From the NCBI GenBank assembly GCA_965223845.1, contig CBDCXR010000004.1:32001-96000 (forward strand): a stretch of 64,000 bases of DNA, read 5' to 3'. The position numbers and the translations under genes are program-made. The stretch is from Planctomycetota bacterium (GTDB lineage Bacteria > Planctomycetota > UBA8108 > SXIK01). Shown here piece by piece: positions 2,489-58,713 of the stretch. Position 1 is the first letter of the stretch. Each line of letters starts with the position of its first letter. The notes under the pieces are model-generated. The model searched no databases, had not been told where the DNA came from, and worked only from the letters and a program-made list of their open reading frames with translations.

Positions 2489-2803
2489 GACGCGACCCGA
2501 CCGGCGACAACGGCGGTCCCGCGCGACGGATGAACTCGATCAGGAGATTCGTCCGCCGTGCGCCGATCCCGTACCGGCAACCGGCACGGTTCGGGGAGAA
2601 CGAGATTCTTGGGGAGGAAAGACGGCCGGGCGTCGGGGGATGAACATCCGGGGGACAAGGATTAGGCGGATCGACGGTGAGCACGTCGTCTTTCGTGCGG
2701 GTCCGGAGGGAGGGCGCGCGACGCGCGCCGACTTCGATTCCGCCCGCCGGGCGGCTCGAGTCGCCCGCGGTTCCCACGAGAAGCGGTGAAGCGGAGCTAG
2801 ATC

Positions 2804-3085
2804 TTGAACGACCCGCGGGGGGCGCCGGGAGTCCACGTCGAGTTCGTTGACTCGCTCGCCCAGGAAGAGAAAGACCTCCTGGTTTTACGGAAGATCCTCT
2901 ACGAGGGGTCCTGGGATGACATGAAGCGGGACTTGCGCTCCCGCCGCAGCGGAAAGCCGTTTATCTTTAAGCTCAACACGCGAATTGACGAAGATCTGGA
3001 GAGAATCGAGAAGCTCGAGGACTATGAGCAGCAGCACAAGATAAACCTCCTCGCGTATCTCGAAGATAAGCCCGTCGACGCCTGA
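2804..3085 (+). CDS. Small hypothetical protein (93 aa)
   Basis: Globular-looking sequence (LYEGSWDDMKRDL..GKPFIFKL..RIDEDLERIEKL); GGAG RBS before the TTG. Confidence 0.75.
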   Translation: MNDPRGAPGVHVEFVDSLAQEEKDLLVLRKILYEGSWDDMKRDLRSRRSGKPFIFKLNTRIDEDLERIEKLEDYEQQHKINLLAYLEDKPVDA

Positions 3086-3370
3086 TCGAAGCCCGACTCC
3101 CGCTCAGCGGTGTTCCGCCGCCGGAGGGGAGATCGATCGCTCCGGTCGCTTCTCGGGGTCTCACACATCTGAAATTCCATTCCATCCGAGGGTCACGCCA
3201 GAGACCGCCGCTCCGATATTGCTCGGGGCAGAGCGGTTTCGGTTGTCGATCCGCGCTCTTCCTCCAGTGAATCAGCCGCGTTCGCGCCGGACTCGGGCCC
3301 TGTCCCACCCGGCGGGATTCGTCCCCGAACGGTCGAGTCCGACGCGCGTCTTCCAACAAAGGAGTATTGC

Positions 3371-4627
3371 ATGAACGTGCGGGCGCTATTTCTTCCGGTC
3401 GCCTTTGTTGCGGCAGCCCAGCTGATCGGCTGCCAGGCGCAGCAGAGTGGCCCGACGGAGTCTTCGACCGCGCGCGCCCGGCGCGCCTCGCCGCGGATCT
3501 CCGACGAGATTCTCGCGCAGCACGGCCTCCAGACGCTCTGGTACAACGGCCCCGATCGCGGCGAGCACAAGGTGTTCAACGCCTGGGTGCTCGACGAGGC
3601 ACTCTTCGTCGCGACGCAGCCGGTCTCGGGCAAGCCGGGAAAGCTGAAGAGCATCAACAAGAAGGACGGGATGCCGAACTGGTACTACGAGATCGGCGCG
3701 CCGCTCCAGCACGCCCCGTCGGTGTACCGGTACGCGACGCTCGGTCCCGGCAGCGATCACGAGGTGTACATCTCGCTCGACGACACGGTGCACTGCATCG
3801 GACTCGAGCACGGTCAGCTCCTGTGGAAGAAAACCGCTCCCTACGGCGTGTCGACGCAGGTGGTCGCCGACGCGGACCGGTACTTCGCCGGATCGGAGAG
3901 CGGACAGATCTTCGCTGCGCGCAAGGACAGCGCGGTCGTCGACTGGCAGCATCGAACCGGCGCGTACGTCGAGGCCGACCCGGTGATCGCCGGGACGAGC
4001 CTGTTCGCGGGTTCGACCGACGGTGTGCTCTACGCGCTGTCGCGAACCGCCGGTTACTACCAGGGCTCCTCGTGGCAGTTCCCGACCGGCGCTCGCATCA
4101 CCGCCTCCCCCGTCGTCTTCTCGCAGTGGGTGCTCGCGGGCTCCGCAGACTACAAGCTCTACTGCCTTTCGGCCTCGAACGGCACGAAGCTCTGGGATTT
4201 CCTCGCCGAGGCGCCGATCCTCGAGTCTCCGGTCGTCTACAGCTTTCGCCCCAACCAGGAGTTCGCCTTCTGCATCGGCGTCGACAGCGACCGCGGTCGC
4301 GAGGTGCGCACGCTGTTCGCCGTCCGGCTGCGCGGACGTCGCGGTGAGCGCGGTGGAATCGACGAGTGGCGCTTCGAAGGCGTCTCTCGAGTCGTTTCGT
4401 TGGGGGCGAAGAACCTGTACGTCCTCAGCGACGCGAGCACGACCGGAGATCGTGCGATCGTCGCGCTCGACGTGCTCTCGGGCGAGGAGCGTTTCCGCGT
4501 TCCTGTCGACCCGGGCTTTCTGTTCGTGCCCACGAACGGCGCGGACTTCGGTCGGAACCGCGCGGAGCGGGGAAGGATCTACCTCGTCGGGCACGACGGG
4601 ACGATCCAAACCATCGCCGAGAAATAA
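3371..4627 (+). CDS. PQQ-like beta-propeller lipoprotein (BamB-like)
   Basis: Lipobox-like LIGC; repeated GSxDGxLYAL / GxxLW blades; AAGGAG RBS. Confidence 0.85.
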   Translation: MNVRALFLPVAFVAAAQLIGCQAQQSGPTESSTARARRASPRISDEILAQHGLQTLWYNGPDRGEHKVFNAWVLDEALFVATQPVSGKPGKLKSINKKDGMPNWYYEIGAPLQHAPSVYRYATLGPGSDHEVYISLDDTVHCIGLEHGQLLWKKTAPYGVSTQVVADADRYFAGSESGQIFAARKDSAVVDWQHRTGAYVEADPVIAGTSLFAGSTDGVLYALSRTAGYYQGSSWQFPTGARITASPVVFSQWVLAGSADYKLYCLSASNGTKLWDFLAEAPILESPVVYSFRPNQEFAFCIGVDSDRGREVRTLFAVRLRGRRGERGGIDEWRFEGVSRVVSLGAKNLYVLSDASTTGDRAIVALDVLSGEERFRVPVDPGFLFVPTNGADFGRNRAERGRIYLVGHDGTIQTIAEK

Positions 4628-4835
4628 CGCGAGCCGCATCGCTCTCTGCGATGCTGATTCCGCGGGCCACGAAGCCGTCGATCGAGATGCGATCGGCGGC
4701 TTCGTCGTTTTACCGCCGGCGGTCGAGCGACTCGTCGGAGCGGCGCTCGGGCCGCGCCCGGCGCCGGGCGGGCCGTTGCGGGCGGGCCCTAATCGGTCGA
4801 GAATGTCGATCGAACCGATTCGCCGCGGAGACCGC

Positions 4836-6290
4836 ATGCATTTCATCGATCGCTTCGATCGCGACGTGAGCCCGCTTCTCGCCGACGCGTCCCGCGTGCT
4901 CGTCGGCGTTTCGGGTGGGGCGGATTCGATCGCGCTCCTCTCCCTCCTCTCGGAGTGGGCGAGTTCGCGCTCTCGGCCGCTCGCTCTCCTCGTCGGGCAC
5001 GTCCACCACGGGCTTCGCGGCGCGGCCGCCGACGTTGACGCCGCATTCGTCGCGGGCGTCGCGGCCGGGCTCGGCTGTCCGTTTCTCGAGTTCCGCGGCG
5101 ATGCGCGGCTGCTCGCGAAGGAGCTCGGTGCGTCACCCGAGGATGCCGCGCGCGAGCTTCGTCACCGCGCGTTCGAGGCGTGGATTCGCGCCGAGCGCGT
5201 CGACGCGCTCGCGCTCGCGCATCACCGCGACGACCAGGCGGAGACCGTTCTCTTGAGAGCGATCCGCGGCGCGGGGATCGACGGCCTCGCCGGTATGTCT
5301 CGACGGCGCGAGTTCGGACGCGGCACGAACGCCTTCGTCGTTCGCCCTCTCTTCGACTGGGCTAGAGCGGAGGTCGAAGCCTACCTTCGCGACCGCGGCC
5401 TCTCGTGGAGGGAAGACGCGACGAACGCGAGCGACGCGATCCCTCGCAATCGAATCCGCCGGCGCGTCCTTCCGGAGCTCGAGCAGGCCCAACCCGGTGC
5501 GACCCGTTCGCTCGTGCGGCTGGCGGAGTTCGCGCGAGAGACAGCGCGCGATCTCGACGAGCTCGCGGAGGGCGCGGTGCGGAGCTTCGTTCGCCCTTCG
5601 CCTCGTGGCTCGAGCCTGCCGGTCAATGCGCTTCTCGCCTTGCCGGACAGTCTCGCGCGAAGAGTTTTGGAACAGCTCGCCGTCGCCGCCGGGGGAGATC
5701 CTTCGTCGTCCGTGCGCCGGGGTGCGGCGGCCGCGCTGCGCGTTCTCCGCCGAGCGGCAGCGCCGCTCTCGGCCGTGCTCGCTCTCGGGTCACGCGTCGA
5801 CGTACATGTTCGCTACGACCACTTGTACGTGCGTCCGAGACCGGATGGCGCGTCGAGGCTCACCGCTGCGACGCGGTCGATCGATCGCGCCGGGCGAGGG
5901 AGCGCGCGCTGGCGGGACTGGCACGTGAGCGTCCAGCCTCTTGCTCCAGGCGAAGAGTCCGTCGCCATCGCGCCATCTCGCCTCCGGGACGGCATTGTCG
6001 AGCGGTTCGACGCCGACACGATCGGCGCGCTCGGACCGCTGACCCTGCGTGGGCGACGCGCGGGCGATGTATTTCGCGCTCTCGGCGCTCCGGGGCGACA
6101 GAAGCTCAAGGAATTCCTGCGCAGTCAGCGCATTCCGCCGTGCGATCGCGACACGGTGCCGCTCCTCGTCGCAGGCGACACGATCGTGTGGGTCGTCGGG
6201 TGCCGTATCGGGCACGCGGCGCGCTGCCGGCCCGAGACGAAGAGCGTGCTCGCAGTCGAGGCGCACCGCGAGGGCGGTCCGAGTTCGTAG
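4836..6290 (+). CDS. tilS: tRNA(Ile)-lysidine synthetase
   Basis: VGVSGGADS PP-loop, HVHHGLR, AHHRDDQAET, DATN, RNRIR and TilS C-terminal QKLKEFL...PLL...IVWVVG. Start 4836 or 4803, not 4023. Confidence 0.95.
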   Translation: MHFIDRFDRDVSPLLADASRVLVGVSGGADSIALLSLLSEWASSRSRPLALLVGHVHHGLRGAAADVDAAFVAGVAAGLGCPFLEFRGDARLLAKELGASPEDAARELRHRAFEAWIRAERVDALALAHHRDDQAETVLLRAIRGAGIDGLAGMSRRREFGRGTNAFVVRPLFDWARAEVEAYLRDRGLSWREDATNASDAIPRNRIRRRVLPELEQAQPGATRSLVRLAEFARETARDLDELAEGAVRSFVRPSPRGSSLPVNALLALPDSLARRVLEQLAVAAGGDPSSSVRRGAAAALRVLRRAAAPLSAVLALGSRVDVHVRYDHLYVRPRPDGASRLTAATRSIDRAGRGSARWRDWHVSVQPLAPGEESVAIAPSRLRDGIVERFDADTIGALGPLTLRGRRAGDVFRALGAPGRQKLKEFLRSQRIPPCDRDTVPLLVAGDTIVWVVGCRIGHAARCRPETKSVLAVEAHREGGPSS

Positions 6291-51785: not shown

Positions 51786-52718
51786 ATGACTAACGAGGAA
51801 GAGCACAACCTACCTCCGATTCTCCCCGTGGGTACGGCCGTCGTCAGCACGGTCGAAATTGCGGAGCGCGCGGGGAAGCCGGTATACCCTCGCGGCTCGG
51901 TCGGAATGATCACTCGGGCGCCGAGCGACCCGGATCATCGCTACCGCGTGCGATTCCCCGGCGGACAGGAAGCTTCCCTTAGACGAGCGGATCTAGTCGT
52001 CCTCAAGCACTTCCAGCGCGAGGGGATGAATCTCGATCCCATGGCGGAACACGACCTCTACCGCCATGTGATCTATCAGTGCGTCATCGGATCTCGCGCG
52101 TACGGTCTGGACCACGACGGTTCGGATATCGATCGTCGTGGTATCTACCTCCCGCCCGCTCACCTCGAGTGGTCTCTCTACGGTGTACCCGAGCAACTAG
52201 AAAACAACGAGACGGAGGAATGCTACTGGGAGATGGAGAAGTTCTTGAAGCTCGCGCTCAGGGCGAACCCGAACGTTCTCGAAGTCCTGTATTCGCCCAT
52301 CGTCGAGAAGGCAACGCCGCTCGCTCGAGAGCTCCTGGATCAGAAGAACATCTTTCTTTCCCGTCTCGTCTATCAAACGTACAACGGCTACGTCCTATCG
52401 CAGTTCAAGAAGCTCGGTCAGGACCTTAGGAATCGGGGCACGATCAAGTGGAAGCATGCGATGCATCTGATTCGACTCCTGCTGTCGGGAATCACCATTC
52501 TTCGCGAAGGATTCGTGCCCGTTCAGGTCGCCCAGTACCGTGAGAGATTGCTTGCGATTCGCGACGGGGAGACGCCGTGGAGCGAAGTCGATGCTTGGCG
52601 CTTGAAGCTGCACCAAGAATTCGACGCCACATACGAAACGACCGATCTTCCAACTCATCCGGACTACGAGAGTGCGAACGCGTTTCTCGTAAAGGCGCGG
52701 AGGTCGATGGTGACGTGA
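51786..52718 (+). CDS. RlaP/YcgL-like Pol-beta nucleotidyltransferase with extra N-terminal beta domain
   Basis: IGSRAYGL..SDIDRRG, KFLKLALRANPNVLEVL, KHAMHLIRLL. Confidence 0.9.
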   Translation: MTNEEEHNLPPILPVGTAVVSTVEIAERAGKPVYPRGSVGMITRAPSDPDHRYRVRFPGGQEASLRRADLVVLKHFQREGMNLDPMAEHDLYRHVIYQCVIGSRAYGLDHDGSDIDRRGIYLPPAHLEWSLYGVPEQLENNETEECYWEMEKFLKLALRANPNVLEVLYSPIVEKATPLARELLDQKNIFLSRLVYQTYNGYVLSQFKKLGQDLRNRGTIKWKHAMHLIRLLLSGITILREGFVPVQVAQYRERLLAIRDGETPWSEVDAWRLKLHQEFDATYETTDLPTHPDYESANAFLVKARRSMVT

Positions 52719-53485
52719 ACGAGCTCGACCCGCGCCTTCAAAAGATCACCGAGAGTCAGCCGTATCCGCTGGTGTTCGCCACGGTCAGCGGCGCTCACCT
52801 CTACGGTTTCGCATCGGCGGATTCCGACTGGGATCTACGCGGCGTTCACGTCCTCCCGATCGAAACCGTGGCGAGTCTGAACGAACGCCGGGAGACGATC
52901 GAGGACTCCCCCGAGGTGACGAGCGACGGATTCGAGCTGGACCTGGTGACGCACGACATCGAAAAGTTTATGCGTCTTATGCTCAAGAGGAACGGCTACG
53001 TTTTGGAGCAAGTGTTTTCGCCGCTGATTGTCGCCACTACTCCGGAACACGAAGAGCTCAAGACGCTCGGAAAGGACTGCATCACTCGGCACCACGCGCA
53101 CCACTACTTGGGTTTCGCGAGAACGCAGTGGGGGCTCTTTCTCAAGGACACGCCGAGGAGGGTCAAGCCGCTTCTCTACGTGTACCGGGTGCTCCTCACG
53201 GGAATCCACCTCATGCGCACGGGGCGCATCGAAGCGAACATCGCGGAGGCCAACGAAGAACTCCAGCTTCCGTACATCGCCGAACTCGTCGAACGCAAAG
53301 TGAACGGAAAAGAAAAGGAGGAGCTGGTCGACGAGGATCTCGCCTTCCACCAGCGCGAGTACGAACGATTGGTTCAGGTTCTAAATGAGGAGCGAGATCG
53401 GTCGGCGCTGCCGGAGAAATCTTCCTCCAGAGCGGGGCTCAACGATCTGCTCCTTCGCTTGAGGCTCGAAGGGTTTTCGCGATAG
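52715..53485 (+). CDS. Second RlaP/YcgL-like nucleotidyltransferase
   Basis: GTGA overlap; SGAHLYGFASADSDWDLRG, NGYVLEQ, KPLLYVYRVLLTGIHL. Confidence 0.9.
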   Translation: MNELDPRLQKITESQPYPLVFATVSGAHLYGFASADSDWDLRGVHVLPIETVASLNERRETIEDSPEVTSDGFELDLVTHDIEKFMRLMLKRNGYVLEQVFSPLIVATTPEHEELKTLGKDCITRHHAHHYLGFARTQWGLFLKDTPRRVKPLLYVYRVLLTGIHLMRTGRIEANIAEANEELQLPYIAELVERKVNGKEKEELVDEDLAFHQREYERLVQVLNEERDRSALPEKSSSRAGLNDLLLRLRLEGFSR

Positions 53486-55238: not shown

Positions 55239-55244
55239 CAGTTC

Positions 55245-55289
55245 TGGTCGGGGTGACAGGATTTGAACCTACGACCTCCTGCTCCCAAA
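55245..55289 (-). repeat. att site: 45-bp duplication of the tRNA-Pro 3' half
   Basis: Identical to 58636-58680; runs from the 7-nt anticodon loop (TTTGGGA) to CCA. Confidence 0.95.
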
Positions 55290-55846: not shown

Positions 55847-56728
55847 CTACGTGGCGGGCAGGGAATCAGCCGAGGACTCGCACCCGTAGTGATTTCGATG
55901 GTACTTGAGGTGCCCTTTGCTCACGGAGTGTCCCTTGGCGGTTCTGAGTCTGCCGCCCAGACCGACTAAGGTCAGGTCATCCGCAATCGTGAAAGCACCC
56001 GTATCGAACAAGATGTGGTGGTTCGGGCACAGGCAGAGCACATTGTCTTCCGTGTCCGCCCCGTCGTGCGGCGAACCCAGCGAGCGGATGTGAGCGGCTT
56101 CAGCGTAGTACCCTGCGGGAGTTTCGAGGCGAACTCCGCAGACCTGGCAACGATACCCGTGGGCTTCCTTGACGTTCTTCGCAACTCGGACATCTCGAAC
56201 GATGCGAAGCGTACTGCTTTCCCGTCGAGCCGTTGGTCTTGCCTCTGATTCTGGCTGCCAGGGTGCGGCAGAATCGTCAACTCGGCGAAGACGATAACGC
56301 CAAACACGGAACCCCGACCGTCCCTGTTCGTGCCAGAAGTCCTCTACCGTGTAGAGCCCGTCGTATCGAAAGCCCTCGGCGGGTGCGTACTCGGAGTCGA
56401 GCCGGGAACCTCGGACAACTCGGACGGGTGCGCCTGTGGTCTTGTTTCTGGCAAGAGCGAGGTTCTGACGCTCAAGGGTCTGGTCGGCGACCTGCTTACG
56501 TGTCTGCGGGTCGTTCCCACCGTGTCCCGTGTAGATAATGATGTCGCCGCTGTCGATGTCGTCTTCATAACCGCCTGAGACGACAATGGAATCGGCACCC
56601 TCAAAGGCTGAGCCAGAGATGCCAGCCTGGACAGGAGCATGAATGCCAGCCTTGGCTAACGCTGCTCGGTCAGAGAACCTGCTTCCGACAGGTACCGAAT
56701 CTAAGTGTCCGAAGATCCTATCAGCCAC
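55847..56728 (-). CDS. SRA/YDG-HNH modification-dependent (type IV) restriction endonuclease, TagI-like architecture
   Basis: SRA: AGISG..ADSIVVSGGYEDD..IIYTGHGG..PVRVVRG..FRYDGLY; HNH: CQVCG..EAAHI..DNVLCLCPNHHILFD. Confidence 0.95.
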   Translation of the reverse strand: MADRIFGHLDSVPVGSRFSDRAALAKAGIHAPVQAGISGSAFEGADSIVVSGGYEDDIDSGDIIIYTGHGGNDPQTRKQVADQTLERQNLALARNKTTGAPVRVVRGSRLDSEYAPAEGFRYDGLYTVEDFWHEQGRSGFRVWRYRLRRVDDSAAPWQPESEARPTARRESSTLRIVRDVRVAKNVKEAHGYRCQVCGVRLETPAGYYAEAAHIRSLGSPHDGADTEDNVLCLCPNHHILFDTGAFTIADDLTLVGLGGRLRTAKGHSVSKGHLKYHRNHYGCESSADSLPAT

Positions 56729-57333
56729 CGAAGAACCCCGTCAGGACAGGCATGAAGTCCTTTACCTTTCCTGCCAAGTCGGTCACTTGCCCTAAGAGCG
56801 TGGACACCCTCTCTATCAGCGGCTTGACCACTGCGGGCTTTTGCTGTTCCTTCGGCGACGCTGCCTGGGTCGCTATTGCGGACAGAAGGTCGATTACGTC
56901 CTTCCTGGTTTGCTCGTCAATCTCTTTCCTGTCAACGACCGCCTGGGTCAGTTCTCGAATAGCACGGCTGGCTTCCTGGTCACCTTGGTTCTTGAGTACC
57001 GTGACGGCGGAATCGAGAGTCTGAACCGCGCCGGTGTTGATTGTCCCGACGGTGCTTCTATCGACCCGGATGTTGTGCAATGTCCCCTACGTGTTGATAG
57101 ATGGCTCGGGGTCGCTGTGGATAAACCGGAGCGGAACGTGGCACCCCCATTATGTCTTCCATCTCGGCACGAAGGGCATTGATGTTCCGTTCGAGCCCTT
57201 CAGTGTGACGTGCTTGAATCTCGGAGATCTTGGCGTAGCAGTGGAGGCAGAGGGGCACCTCATGCATCTGCCCGTCGTCTCCTGGAACGGACAGCGAGTA
57301 CATCGGCGGATTCTGGCACTGGTAGCAGCGCAC
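56721..57333 (-). pseudogene. Zn-finger + helical-domain protein split by a +1 frameshift near 57085
   Basis: 5' part (GTG 57333 or ATG 57345) RCYQC..PLCLHC; 3' part LHNIRVDRSTVGTINTG..FFGG. Removing one G from GTAGGGGACA fuses them. Could be two genes or a sequencing error. Confidence 0.65.
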
Positions 57334-57334
57334 G

Positions 57335-57472
57335 CTATTTCTCATCCGTTGGCTTCGGCGGTGGAGGCGTCGGCGGCGGATTCCGAATGGTCGGCGGACT
57401 CTTCGGCACCGGCTGACCGATGAGGGGTTCGGGGTGCGTGTCTGTTGTCGTCGGCTCGGGCTGATCGGACAT
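57335..57472 (-). CDS. Pro-rich micropeptide P4 (45 aa)
   Basis: MSDQPEPTTTDTHPEPLIGQPVPKSPPTIRNPPPTPPPPKPTDEK*; ATG overlaps the P3 stop (TGATG). Confidence 0.7.
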   Translation of the reverse strand: MSDQPEPTTTDTHPEPLIGQPVPKSPPTIRNPPPTPPPPKPTDEK

Positions 57473-57603
57473 CACTTCTTCTCGTCTTGAGGACTTGGCG
57501 TCGGTCTTTCTGTTTGCGGCGGCGATGGCGGTTGGCGAATCGCCGTTCTCGGGACGAGCTGACCAAGCGGCTTATTCCCGCCGGGAAGGCTACGGAGTTG
57601 CCT
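57472..57603 (-). other. Pro-rich peptide unit P3 (no start codon; in frame after the P2 stop)
   Basis: RQLRSLPGGNKPLGQLVPRTAIRQPPSPPQTERPTPSPQDEKK*; most similar to P4. Confidence 0.5.
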
Positions 57604-57714
57604 TCACTTACCCTTCGGCTGTGAATCCGGCTTCTGAATGACAGGCGACGGCTTGGGCGGCTTCTGCCCTTCTTCAAGCGGTTGTGGCTTGGGCTTCTTG
57701 GATTCGTCCGACAT
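57604..57714 (-). CDS. Pro-rich micropeptide P2 (36 aa)
   Basis: MSDESKKPKPQPLEEGQKPPKPSPVIQKPDSQPKGK*; GAGG RBS overlapping the P1 stop. Confidence 0.7.
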   Translation of the reverse strand: MSDESKKPKPQPLEEGQKPPKPSPVIQKPDSQPKGK

Positions 57715-57720
57715 CTTGCC

Positions 57721-57858
57721 TCACTTACTCTCTGACGGCTTGTCAGTCGAAGGCGGTTTCGGCGTCTCGCCTGACGAAGACGGCGTAGTCAACGGCGGCG
57801 GCTTCGGCGGCTTCTGCCCCCGCTCCTCGTACGGCGTCGGCTCCGGCTTCTCGGACAT
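57721..57858 (-). CDS. Pro-rich micropeptide P1 (45 aa)
   Basis: MSEKPEPTPYEERGQKPPKPPPLTTPSSSGETPKPPSTDKPSESK*; GAGGA RBS overlapping the upstream stop. Confidence 0.72.
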   Translation of the reverse strand: MSEKPEPTPYEERGQKPPKPPPLTTPSSSGETPKPPSTDKPSESK

Positions 57859-57866
57859 CGCATTCC

Positions 57867-58286
57867 TCACTTCAAGTTGATGACAACGAACGTCAGTACG
57901 AGGAGCACCCCAACGACCAGGAGGATTCCGCCGGCACCGTTGCACCACCCTGTAATCCCGCCCCATCTACCACCGGTCTGCGGCTTGCCAGCGTCAAACT
58001 CGTCAAGTGCTCGCTCGTTCGCCTTTCCCGCTGCGAAGAAAGACAGCAAGACAAGCCCCATACTGAGAGCGAGAGCGCCCCACCCCACACTCAGTATCCA
58101 GGACTGAGTAACGGGCGCCTTGCCCACAACATCCTTGACGAAGGCGAAGGAGATACCGAGAGCACCGCCCGAGAGAGTCAGTGAGGTCTTGTCGTACGAC
58201 CGCCACGATTCCTGAACGGTTGCTTGCAGGAGCTTCCGGTGCTCGTCAGTCAGCCGGTTTACTCGTTCCTCGTGCGACTCTGTCAC
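57867..58286 (-). CDS. 3-TM hypothetical membrane protein
   Basis: YDKTSLTLSGGALGISFAFV plus two more hydrophobic helices; AAGGGG RBS before the GTG. Confidence 0.85.
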   Translation of the reverse strand: MTESHEERVNRLTDEHRKLLQATVQESWRSYDKTSLTLSGGALGISFAFVKDVVGKAPVTQSWILSVGWGALALSMGLVLLSFFAAGKANERALDEFDAGKPQTGGRWGGITGWCNGAGGILLVVGVLLVLTFVVINLK

Positions 58287-58330
58287 TTCTGAGCCCCTTT
58301 TCTCTCCACGGACTCAACAATACACTGAAC

Positions 58331-58358
58331 ATCGTAGCCCAAGCTGAAGACAGGTCAA
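58331..58358 (-). promoter_or_regulatory. Putative sigma70 promoter of the island operon
   Basis: Minus strand TTGACC-16bp-TACGAT, 45 nt before GTG 58286. Confidence 0.6.
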
Positions 58359-58553
58359 ACGGAAGTCCGCAGAGCGGCAAGCCGCCTGCGCCGGGAATGA
58401 GAAAGAGAGCCTCGGTCGTGCCGTACGCTGGCTCTTGCCGGCGTCGGGGCTCAACCCGGCACCGTTGAACGGTCGGACGCTGTGGAGGGGCTTCAGGAGG
58501 GACTGATCAGCTCACCGCATCAGCCCCCGCACCCCCGCACTTGTCCATCTAAG

Positions 58554-58635: not shown

Positions 58636-58713
58636 TGGTCGGGGTGACAGGATTTGAACCTACGACCTCCTGCTCCCAAAGCAGGCGCTCTAGCCAAGCT
58701 GAGCTACACCCCG
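58636..58713 (-). tRNA. tRNA-Pro (TGG)
   Basis: CGGGGTGTAGCTCAGCTTGGCTAGAGCG-CCTGC-TTTGGGA-GCAGG-AGGTCGTAGGTTCAAATCCTGTCACCCCGACCA folds as a cloverleaf with encoded CCA. Confidence 0.97.

Follow-up and report, generated by a model that had tools for sequence, protein, structure and literature searches.

Tandem genes for small proline-rich proteins behind a membrane protein gene probably represent an expanded form of a widespread bacterial microprotein

Does a short, proline-rich stretch of a Planctomycetota genome hold genes and, if so, what do they belong to? The stretch occupies positions 57335–57858, minus strand, of a 64,000-nucleotide segment (assembly GCA_965223845.1, contig CBDCXR010000004.1, positions 32,001 to 96,000 of the forward strand), which we refer to as the window. 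It lies between a gene for a small membrane protein and a gene for a Zn-ribbon-like protein. An earlier note, made from the sequence and a list of its reading frames, had described the stretch as a hidden array of four related Pro-rich micropeptides. Here, we compared the array and its neighboring membrane gene with related loci from bacteria, plasmids, and viruses. We conclude, with a probability of about 85%, that the array consists of tandem paralogous genes for small hydrophilic Pro-rich proteins and is this genome's expanded version of a microprotein that accompanies a widespread family of membrane proteins.

Organization of the array

All four units with the motif G-Q-x-x-P-(K/R), designated P1 to P4, were found on the minus strand of 57335–57858. 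They comprise three intact small open reading frames (ORFs), P1, P2, and P4, each with its own ATG, and one start-less unit, P3. P1 (57721–57858) encodes a Pro-rich protein of 45 residues that begins with MSEK and ends with SESK; a Shine-Dalgarno-like GAGGA stands 5 nucleotides 5′ of its ATG and overlaps the TGA of the membrane gene. P2 (57604–57714) is an intact ORF for 36 Pro-rich residues with an MSDE start and a PKGK end, and the GAGG 4 nucleotides 5′ of its ATG overlaps the TGA of P1. The 43 codons of P3 (57472–57603) contain the motif and end in DEKK; the first codon follows directly on the TGA of P2, in the frame of P2, and no ATG, GTG, or TTG precedes the motif. P4 (57335–57472; 45 Pro-rich residues, MSDQ start, TDEK end) begins at an ATG within a TGATG, sharing its A with the TGA of P3, and its last 11 nucleotides overlap the ATG start of the Zn-ribbon-like gene.

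The final residue is Lys in every unit, and none of the four contains a Cys or a hydrophobic segment. P1, P2, P3, and the Zn-ribbon-like gene share a single frame, with P4 and the membrane gene in the other two. The net charge is 0 for P1, −2 for P4, and positive for P2 and P3. The G+C content by codon position in P1 is 0.52/0.63/0.80; the third-position value is raised in P1 (0.80), P2 (0.68), and P4 (0.72) but not in P3 (0.57). Thus, the MS(D/E) starts of P1, P2, and P4, the final Lys, and the coupling of starts to preceding stops hold as the earlier note had described them, whereas P3 has no start codon and so, as it stands, is no gene of its own.

For P3, there are two readings, a decayed unit and an extension of P2 by read-through. 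The succession of P2 and P3 resembles single ORFs with two motifs at other loci (see below); P3 may have been cut off from P2 as the second half of an ORF of that kind, or may be a read-through product. Exact look-up of the P2-P3 read-through form in a public protein collection gave no match, and nothing else hints at recoding of TGA. In a collection of 15 billion proteins, exact look-up missed nine of ten tested peptides, the exception being P2, which is the sole window unit found. Contigs assembled from four public DNA runs (two samples of one study, possibly the source of the record) were identical to positions 57000–58400, with 0 mismatches and 0 gaps, indicating that the TGA codons and frames are not an assembly slip specific to this record.

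Two alternative-frame ORFs also cover the array, one Arg-rich (57342–57677, minus strand, 111 residues) and one Gly-rich (57638–57880, plus strand, 80 residues). Both are expected as shadows of Pro and Lys codons in G+C-rich DNA and have no comparative support.

Relatedness of the four units

We assessed each pair of units by shuffling one partner 2000 times with its composition preserved. The similarity of P1 and P2 stood out clearly (z 5.7), the real score being reached by 0 of 2000 shuffles. The pairs P1-P4 (p = 0.0145) and P3-P4 (p = 0.0195) were also similar, and no significant similarity was detected for P1-P3, P2-P3, or P2-P4. The division into P1/P2 and P3/P4 subtypes proposed earlier fits these results. 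At the DNA level, the mean column identity between units is 57%, with only two short repeat patches, one of 26 nucleotides at 92% (the P1/P2 core) and one of 25 nucleotides at 88% (the P1/P4 start), which agrees with the patchy identity noted before.

A six-frame translation of the 7.93-Mb genome contains the motif GQ..P[KR] 246 times, which corresponds to 0.008 expected occurrences per 524 nucleotides, and the array is the sole place in the genome with at least three within such a span. This clustering test is post hoc, because the motif was derived from P1 to P4 themselves.

The membrane protein family

The membrane protein gene directly upstream of P1 (57867–58286, minus strand) has a GTG start and a TGA stop and encodes 139 residues. 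The N terminus of the protein forms an amphipathic helix, and a conserved LSGGALGISFAF segment and two helices of strong hydrophobicity are also present. Hydropathy gave two strong helices and one marginal helix, and an AlphaFold2 model consisted of four helices with a mean predicted local distance difference test score (pLDDT) of 82.9. A word-indexed search returned 66 proteins. By profile search, the family extended to 5,854 clusters (50% identity) at E ≤ 1e-3, with 3,644 at E ≤ 1e-10 and 427 at E ≤ 1e-30. The family profile matched the window protein over its full length (172 bits, E 6.1e-46), including the LSGGALGISFAF segment and the invariant Asn of the last helix. LSGGALG, W69, S75, N116, and G126 are invariant in the alignment. 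The membrane gene is single-copy in this genome, the next tblastn match having an E value of 0.53. The membrane proteins P0002 and P0003 are 62–67% identical to that of the window, but their contigs end too soon to reveal an array.

None of the 24 aligned members passed a Pfam, NCBIfam, or PADLOC threshold; the best PADLOC match (E 0.0025) covered 21 residues of one of the 24, and nothing significant was found for the membrane protein in PHROGs. A fold search with the AlphaFold2 model gave no PDB match at E ≤ 0.001, and rows for NINJ1 and MAPEG-like proteins were at chance level. A language-model search returned unnamed clusters, the nearest named one being a PycTM cluster (score 0.81), which we took as a lead only. 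Identity with PycTM was later rejected: none of the 24 members matched PF18967 (E ≤ 0.01), and hhalign against the PycTM of locus L031 gave a probability of 0.7%. The same type of search with P1 produced no usable match. Separately, locus L032 carries two copies of the membrane gene (3830–4255 and 5472–5888), the first of them truncated.

A proline-rich microprotein linked to the membrane gene

The earlier note had tied the array to the membrane protein beside it and had proposed translating the flanks of homologues without a length cutoff. We fetched 105 loci, of which 23 came from species genomes, 2 from viral contigs, and 80 (out of 100 matches) from metagenomes, and scanned the coding strand from −10 to +400 nucleotides relative to the end of the membrane-gene core for the pattern G-x(1–4)-Pro-run. 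The motif was present in 74 of the 88 loci with at least 250 nucleotides downstream, compared with a background of 0.11 per locus, and the tie to the membrane protein was thereby upheld. Overall, about a hundred unrelated bacteria share an unannotated pairing of a membrane gene with a Pro-rich peptide, and this recurrence is a sign of a two-part membrane module not described before.

The other 14 loci mostly proved, on inspection by eye, to carry variant peptides, such as the low-G+C forms KRGYNIPPRP and KKGQNVPKKP or forms without the Gly. The membrane genes of L032 and L033 are broken. No peptide was seen in L103; among all 105 loci, L057 and L107 also had none. To reduce redundancy, membrane proteins were clustered at 85% identity into 80 clusters, which left 63 loci with at least 450 nucleotides downstream. 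A broader regular expression was passed by 56 of these 63, with one motif copy in 35, two in 20, and three in 1. The window array is the largest found, its four motifs being spread over three or four reading units. In the same phylum, the peptide was present in all four other carriers.

The 68 non-redundant peptides are 22–72 residues long (median 49.5), and their median composition is 34% Pro, 20% Lys plus Arg, and 8% Asp plus Glu. Net charge is positive in 62 (median +5); a hydrophobic run occurs in none and a Cys in one. PPP is present in 58 and PPPPP in 43. The core motif reads [basic/acidic]-G-[Y, less often Q/H/F/R]-x-(V/I/P)-P-rich. The residue after the Gly is Tyr in 43 of 82 motifs; less commonly, it is K, R, F, A, L, H, or Q. 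GQ forms like those of the window occur in L017, L049, L053, L074, L087, L101, and L104. An M[STA][DE] start is found in 24 of the 68 peptides and a final Lys in 38. The motif is kept from 32% to 68% G+C.

Such a composition raises the possibility that the peptides act on translation, as cationic Pro-rich microproteins that hit the ribosome or chaperones much as animal Pro-rich antimicrobial peptides do, with the membrane protein serving as exporter, importer, or immunity factor. The high Pro content, the median charge of +5, an aromatic residue followed by a Pro-rich stretch with basic residues, and a possible likeness of the motif to insect peptides would suit this explanation. However, neither the family profile nor two single peptides matched any solved chain of at least 20 residues at E ≤ 10, there is no signal or pro-region, and P1 and P4 are not cationic. 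Moreover, peptides of this kind are described from animals in PMC11484942. We consider a translation-targeting peptide rather improbable.

The peptide starts within −10 to +40 nucleotides of the core end in 56 of the 68 cases. Most commonly, it is a separate ORF, in any frame relative to the membrane gene. In many proteobacterial loci, it starts about 17 nucleotides past the conserved core, inside the membrane gene and in its +1 frame, and the two reading frames end at a similar place. Two separate tandem ORFs occur in L013, L056, L061, L075, and L120, and single ORFs with two or three motifs occur elsewhere, for example in L011, L022, and L027.

Tails of at least 25 residues were found in 59 of 153 signature-bearing family proteins, with the motif in frame in 5. 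Four of these five in-frame fusion proteins keep an internal Met or a Met-led N-terminal start. Further in-frame fusions occur in L079, L105, and L118, the last with two motifs and no internal ATG. Otherwise, the Ala/Thr/Ser-rich tails of database entries are a shifted reading of the peptide ORF, in which a conserved tail sequence, NDRQK, corresponds to the peptide start; tails of this shadow type were noted in L012, L014, L015, L025, and L028 and in database proteins such as P0016 and P0039. On the RefSeq plasmid that we examined, the peptide ORF is without annotation. On the viral contig L034/L110, the partner of the membrane gene (about 4439–4933) is a 164-residue ORF of long repeats ending in G-(D/G)-W-V-P-P-P-S, which is an expanded form of the peptide.

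Selection on the microprotein

We calculated the ratio of non-synonymous to synonymous substitution rates (dN/dS) by the Nei-Gojobori method for 11 related pairs. In the peptide frame, dN/dS was 0.09–0.19 in 8 of the 11. In two further pairs, synonymous sites were saturated, and the proportion of non-synonymous differences (pN) was 0.22–0.23 against 0.81–0.86 for synonymous ones (pS). Shifted frames gave values of at least 0.96 except in two low-G+C pairs, and the overlapping tail frame of the membrane gene gave 0.96–2.48. The membrane core of the same pairs had a dN/dS of 0.03–0.12. Of the low-G+C pairs, L101/L104 differed by one change only, and L100/L102 runs counter to the other pairs, its peptide showing 6 non-synonymous changes and 0 synonymous ones.

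These frame-wise ratios indicate that the family peptide is a constrained protein-coding gene, whereas the overlapping tail is unconstrained. The protein-level constraint that the earlier note had proposed for the array thus has its counterpart in purifying selection on the peptide frame at related loci, and in many database entries, the long C-terminal tail is an unconstrained shadow frame.

The same comparisons bear on the idea that the act of translation matters rather than its product, with stalling-prone ORFs setting mRNA stability or flanking expression through elongation factor P (EF-P) or translation status. The frequency of PPP and PPPPP runs would favor it, as would the tight coupling or overlap with the membrane gene and, in the window, the overlap of P4 with the start of the next gene. 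On the other hand, positions other than Pro are conserved (Gly-Tyr in 43 of 82 motifs, M[STA][DE] starts, basic ends), purifying selection extends over the whole peptide, and P2 and P3 lack a PPP run. Because downstream genes are not conserved, there would also be no common regulated target. We therefore regard this explanation as improbable.

Assignment of the window units to the family

By position (within about 40 nucleotides after the core), size (22–72 residues), hydrophilicity, and the G-x-Pro-run motif, P1 falls within the family, and P2 and P4 do so in everything except position, being placed in tandem. P2 is the unit nearest the family consensus (PLEEGQKPPKP). A full-length profile built without the window ranked the P2 segment 69th and the P1 segment 96th among 177,166 six-frame segments of the genome.

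Several results weigh against the assignment. The E values of the full-length profile were only about 10 for P2 and P1, and P3 and P4 were not found. A 19-position core profile built from other loci listed none of P1 to P4 among its 3,098 matches in the genome. In composition-shuffle comparisons of the window units with four peptides from the same phylum, 0 of 16 pairs reached p < 0.01. P1 and P4 are not cationic, as most of the family is, and P2 and P3 lack the PPP run. The setting of the array in a genomic islet at a tRNA gene (see below) is also particular to this genome, because none of the 45 other loci has a tRNA gene near the module. Sequence alone therefore places the window units only weakly in the family; since the profiles and pairwise tests fail, membership rests on position, size, composition, the MS(D/E) start, the final Lys, and the short motif.

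The units could instead be no separate genes at all, representing decayed remains of one longer Pro-rich gene or tail, or chance ORFs in G+C-rich DNA. P1, P2, and P3 do lie in one frame separated by TGA codons, with P3 start-less; other loci have two or three motifs in a single ORF; and the family profiles give no significant recognition, with only P2 present in the protein collection. Yet P1, P2, and P4 each have an ATG, an MS(D/E) start typical of the family, and a size within its range, with GAGG 4–5 nucleotides upstream of P1 and P2, and third-position G+C is raised in all three. Two-ORF arrays are known from the five loci listed above. The array also follows immediately on the single membrane gene of this family that the genome contains, a position used in 74 of 88 loci. 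Decay or chance is, in our judgment, very improbable, and we retain the reading of the array as tandem paralogous genes of the microprotein family.

The islet and its genes

The array and the membrane gene form part of a 3.4-kb islet. A tRNA-Pro gene with anticodon TGG (58636–58713, minus strand; ARAGORN, Rfam tRNA score 66.3 bits) stands at one boundary. The 3′ 45 nucleotides of this gene (58636–58680) recur with 100% identity at 55245–55289 on the same strand, so that an exact direct repeat, the distal copy of the tRNA 3′ half, marks the far boundary. The terminator hairpin of the tRNA (58627–58597) likewise has an imperfect duplicate at 55239–55207. The public-run contigs that cover 57000–58400 are 3,404–3,406 nucleotides long, matching the length of the islet. 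Eight reading frames fill the islet, which, the tRNA excepted, is missing from 40 of 40 relatives. Two generalizations were tried and rejected. The islet is not an integrated element with its own integrase, as no integrase-like ORF was found between the repeats; the module is not generally located at tRNA genes, given the count of 0 in 45 other loci.

A sigma-70-like promoter match (58331–58358, minus strand; 9 of 12 hexamer positions) lies 5′ of the membrane gene. It was the 1 site found in a scan for which shuffled sequences gave 0.9, and it is not significant alone. No strong terminator was seen within the gene run of the islet.

Downstream of P4, the Zn-ribbon-like gene (57058–57345, minus strand) encodes 95 residues with a CxxC...CxxC pattern and has sub-threshold Pfam matches only. 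A homologue was found neither in the word-indexed protein search nor in the fetched loci, and searches of PADLOC and PHROGs gave nothing significant. The gene belongs to the same operon-like run and lies outside the conserved module. It is followed by a gene for a helical protein of 119 residues (56721–57080, minus strand), which overlaps the end of the Zn-ribbon-like gene and the nuclease gene that comes next. A weak match to the PADLOC candidate system PDC-M14B (E 1.9e-6) covers the C-terminal 88 residues of this protein, which has no PHROG match. Together, these two genes (56721–57345) may constitute a separate small module. The last gene of the islet (55847–56728, minus strand) encodes an SRA/SAD-HNH nuclease resembling methyl-directed type IV restriction enzymes (Pfam SAD_SRA 3.5e-50, HNH_2 1.5e-12), with weak PADLOC matches to mREase_IV, HNH, and ZorE.

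Outside the islet repeats lies an ORF of 415 residues without a Pfam match. Farther away in the window (51786–53485, plus strand), we observed two adjacent, partly overlapping ORFs that both match the RlaP nucleotidyltransferase family (8.3e-42 and 8.2e-56).

Distribution and genomic neighborhood

The membrane protein family is patchily distributed, with 5 of 401 sampled genomes of the phylum carrying it. A search of 50,697 phage records gave no match to the family, and IMG/VR contributed 2 loci. Leaving aside the membrane gene with its antisense shadows, no cluster of ORFs was present in more than 2 of 24 loci, and no Pfam family occurred in more than 2 of the 108 nearest neighbors. The membrane gene and the microprotein gene thus look like a self-contained two-gene cassette that moves between genomes in the pattern of a mobile accessory element.

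Genes near the module encode type I and type IIG restriction enzymes, methyltransferases, AbiEi, DrmD, a PLD-helicase, a STAND NTPase, and a TIR domain protein; housekeeping genes are also found. In L031, a complete Pycsar pair (PycTM 3e-14, PycC 1.4e-101; positions 2714–4550) lies directly upstream of the module. The membrane gene of that locus is split by a frameshift near residue 100. The viral contig L034/L110 carries a gene for a P22-type coat protein and one for a BrxL-like ATPase near the module, and on a plasmid, a vapC gene for a VapC toxin is nearby. Such a distribution is compatible with a role in defense or addiction.

Membrane topology and proposed mechanism

In the membrane protein, basic residues are most concentrated in the loop that joins helices 2 and 3 (mean of 4.5 Lys plus Arg), and the N-terminal segment has a mean net charge of −3.2. 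In three family members (P0072, P0101, and P0108), the last helix is followed by a domain that matches the peptidoglycan-binding domain of TssL1 (4b62, E 2e-4) and MotS. In an AlphaFold2 model (pLDDT 67.2 for the whole protein), this domain matched the folds of MotB, TssL, OprF, OmpA, and Pal with a probability of about 1.0, at E values of 0.0045–0.07 with none ≤0.001; the Pfam OmpA match had an E value of 0.043. Peptidoglycan-binding domains of the OmpA/MotB type are periplasmic. Because of these fused domains, the C terminus of the family is placed outside the cytoplasm and the N terminus inside.

The observations comprise how often the two genes co-occur and where they lie, the purifying selection, the patchy distribution, and the topology seen in fused members; from these, we infer binding, the compartment of the free peptide, regulation, and a biological role as follows. 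The two genes would be co-transcribed and translationally coupled, with the membrane protein inserted N terminus in and C terminus out. The microprotein, an extended chain of the polyproline type, would stay in the cytoplasm, since it lacks an export signal and has a net positive charge. There, it could dock on the acidic N-terminal helix of its partner or on the cytoplasmic loop, and the docked form would regulate, and probably restrain, a membrane-perturbing activity, by analogy with the effector/antidote and effector/sensor pairs known from addiction and defense modules. Long Pro runs may make synthesis of the microprotein dependent on translation capacity through EF-P, providing a possible sensing step. 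In the window, duplication of whole units would supply a single membrane protein with several variant partners. A co-folding run with the membrane protein and P2 scored 0.00 against a mark of 0.32 and was counted neither for nor against binding.

A cytoplasmic polyproline partner that regulates a membrane effector is our most likely working model, derived from gene anatomy and context, although we hold it tentatively and at well below even odds. The identity of the array and this mechanism, taken jointly, come somewhat closer to an even bet while falling short of it. A more specific version, in which the pair is a new two-component conflict module whose EF-P-dependent peptide reads translation capacity and restrains a membrane-perturbing three-helix effector, so that the effector fires when infection or stress lowers peptide synthesis, and whose array is a set of diversified sensors or antidotes, strikes us as unlikely.

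Further points tell against the model. The topology is paradoxical, as a motif fused in frame would be periplasmic and the free peptide has no export signal. Long Pro runs are a poor design for an antidote that is needed in excess. The defense-type neighbors are raw occurrences only.

The first of these points leads to a serious rival, in which the module has an envelope role and the Pro-rich segment is a periplasmic spacer or cell-wall contact, provided in some genomes in cis as a C-terminal tail and in others in trans, by export through or together with the partner; the module would then be a device for anchoring or sensing at the envelope and not a conflict system. The C terminus is indeed periplasmic in the members fused to an OmpA/MotB-like domain, in-frame fusions of membrane protein and peptide exist (L118 included), and the peptidoglycan-binding domain and the Pro-rich tail share the position after helix 3 in different members. 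However, export is disfavored by the lack of a signal-like hydrophobic run in all 68 peptides and by the positive charge of 62 of them. In-frame fusions are uncommon, at 5 in 153 proteins, and a free peptide may still be produced in four of these. The proteobacterial periplasmic tail is an unselected shadow (dN/dS 0.96–2.5), and fusions therefore need not be functional. As arbitrary shadow tails are tolerated and 4 of 5 fusion proteins keep an internal or Met-led start, we treat the in-frame fusions as weak evidence. We prefer a cytoplasmic peptide and judge the envelope role possible but doubtful.

Implications

If the pairing is as described, a membrane family with thousands of clusters is invariably accompanied by a microprotein gene that annotation pipelines have missed, and the annotation of proteobacterial genomes misreads this gene as an Ala/Thr/Ser-rich tail of the membrane protein. 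Existing annotations would be corrected accordingly, many entries having a shadow frame as their long C-terminal tail. The overlapping arrangement would add a testable case of a conserved out-of-frame overlapping gene, and the pair as a whole would be a compact mobile two-gene cassette, often located beside defense genes. To our knowledge, and by our search, a hydrophilic polyproline microprotein is of a type not found among known small-protein regulators. Should experiments identify the pair as an ordinary toxin-antitoxin system, its novelty would be lower.

Comparison with known systems

Searches of Pfam, NCBIfam, PADLOC, and the titles and abstract openings of the literature gave nothing with this layout, which agrees with the earlier note; in those titles and abstract openings, we likewise found no published description of the gene pair. 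A leader/core-like layout had also been suggested; a form of it like that of ribosomally synthesized and post-translationally modified peptides (RiPPs) was not borne out: neither a maturation enzyme nor any other neighbor is conserved. Across the 24 loci and 108 neighbors, no RiPP- or bacteriocin-type maturation, export, or immunity gene recurs, and the three-helix membrane protein is the only conserved neighbor.

In spanins of the Rz/Rz1 type, a small Pro-rich partner is encoded behind a membrane gene, overlapping it, or embedded in its +1 frame, and separate, overlapping, and fused forms exist. The same separate, overlapping, and fused arrangements are found here, a likeness confined to gene architecture. 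The o-spanins (Rz1-like) are characterized by an N-terminal lipoprotein signal with a lipobox Cys. In contrast, P1 to P4 have no Cys or hydrophobic segment, and of the 68 family peptides, none has a hydrophobic run and a single one has a Cys. The membrane partner differs as well, having three hydrophobic helices and hardly any periplasmic portion. Nor is there a lysis cassette: the family had 0 matches in the 50,697 phage records, and no lysis-type family is among the 25 listed for the 108 neighbors.

Animal Pro-rich antimicrobial peptides such as oncocin, apidaecin, and Bac7 are short, cationic, and unstructured and act in the ribosome tunnel, according to PMC11484942. The family peptides are likewise short, Pro-rich, and unstructured, and 62 of 68 are net positive; of the window units, P2 and P3 are positive, whereas P1 has a net charge of 0 and P4 of −2. 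They differ in being bacterial, in lacking a signal or pro-region, and in their genetic tie to a membrane protein, and the PDB search with the family profile and two peptides, restricted to chains of at least 20 residues, gave 0 matches at E ≤ 10.

With MotB, TssL, and ZorB, the family shares the OmpA/MotB-like periplasmic domain at the end of P0072, P0101, and P0108. The window protein and most of the family are without this domain, have three helices rather than one, and are not linked to a MotA- or ZorA-like partner. PycTM resembles the membrane protein in being a helical membrane protein of about 140–160 residues, and in L031, the module adjoins a Pycsar pair. However, the Pycsar system of L031 already has its own effector, PycC occurs in only 1 of 108 neighbors, and no cyclase is linked elsewhere.

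Toxin-antitoxin and abortive-infection systems offer a further comparison. Although the pair has no PADLOC homology and its small partner is a polyproline peptide without a DNA-binding fold, it resembles these systems in being an autonomous, co-oriented, and coupled gene pair, with a patchy, island-associated distribution and with defense or addiction genes among its neighbors.

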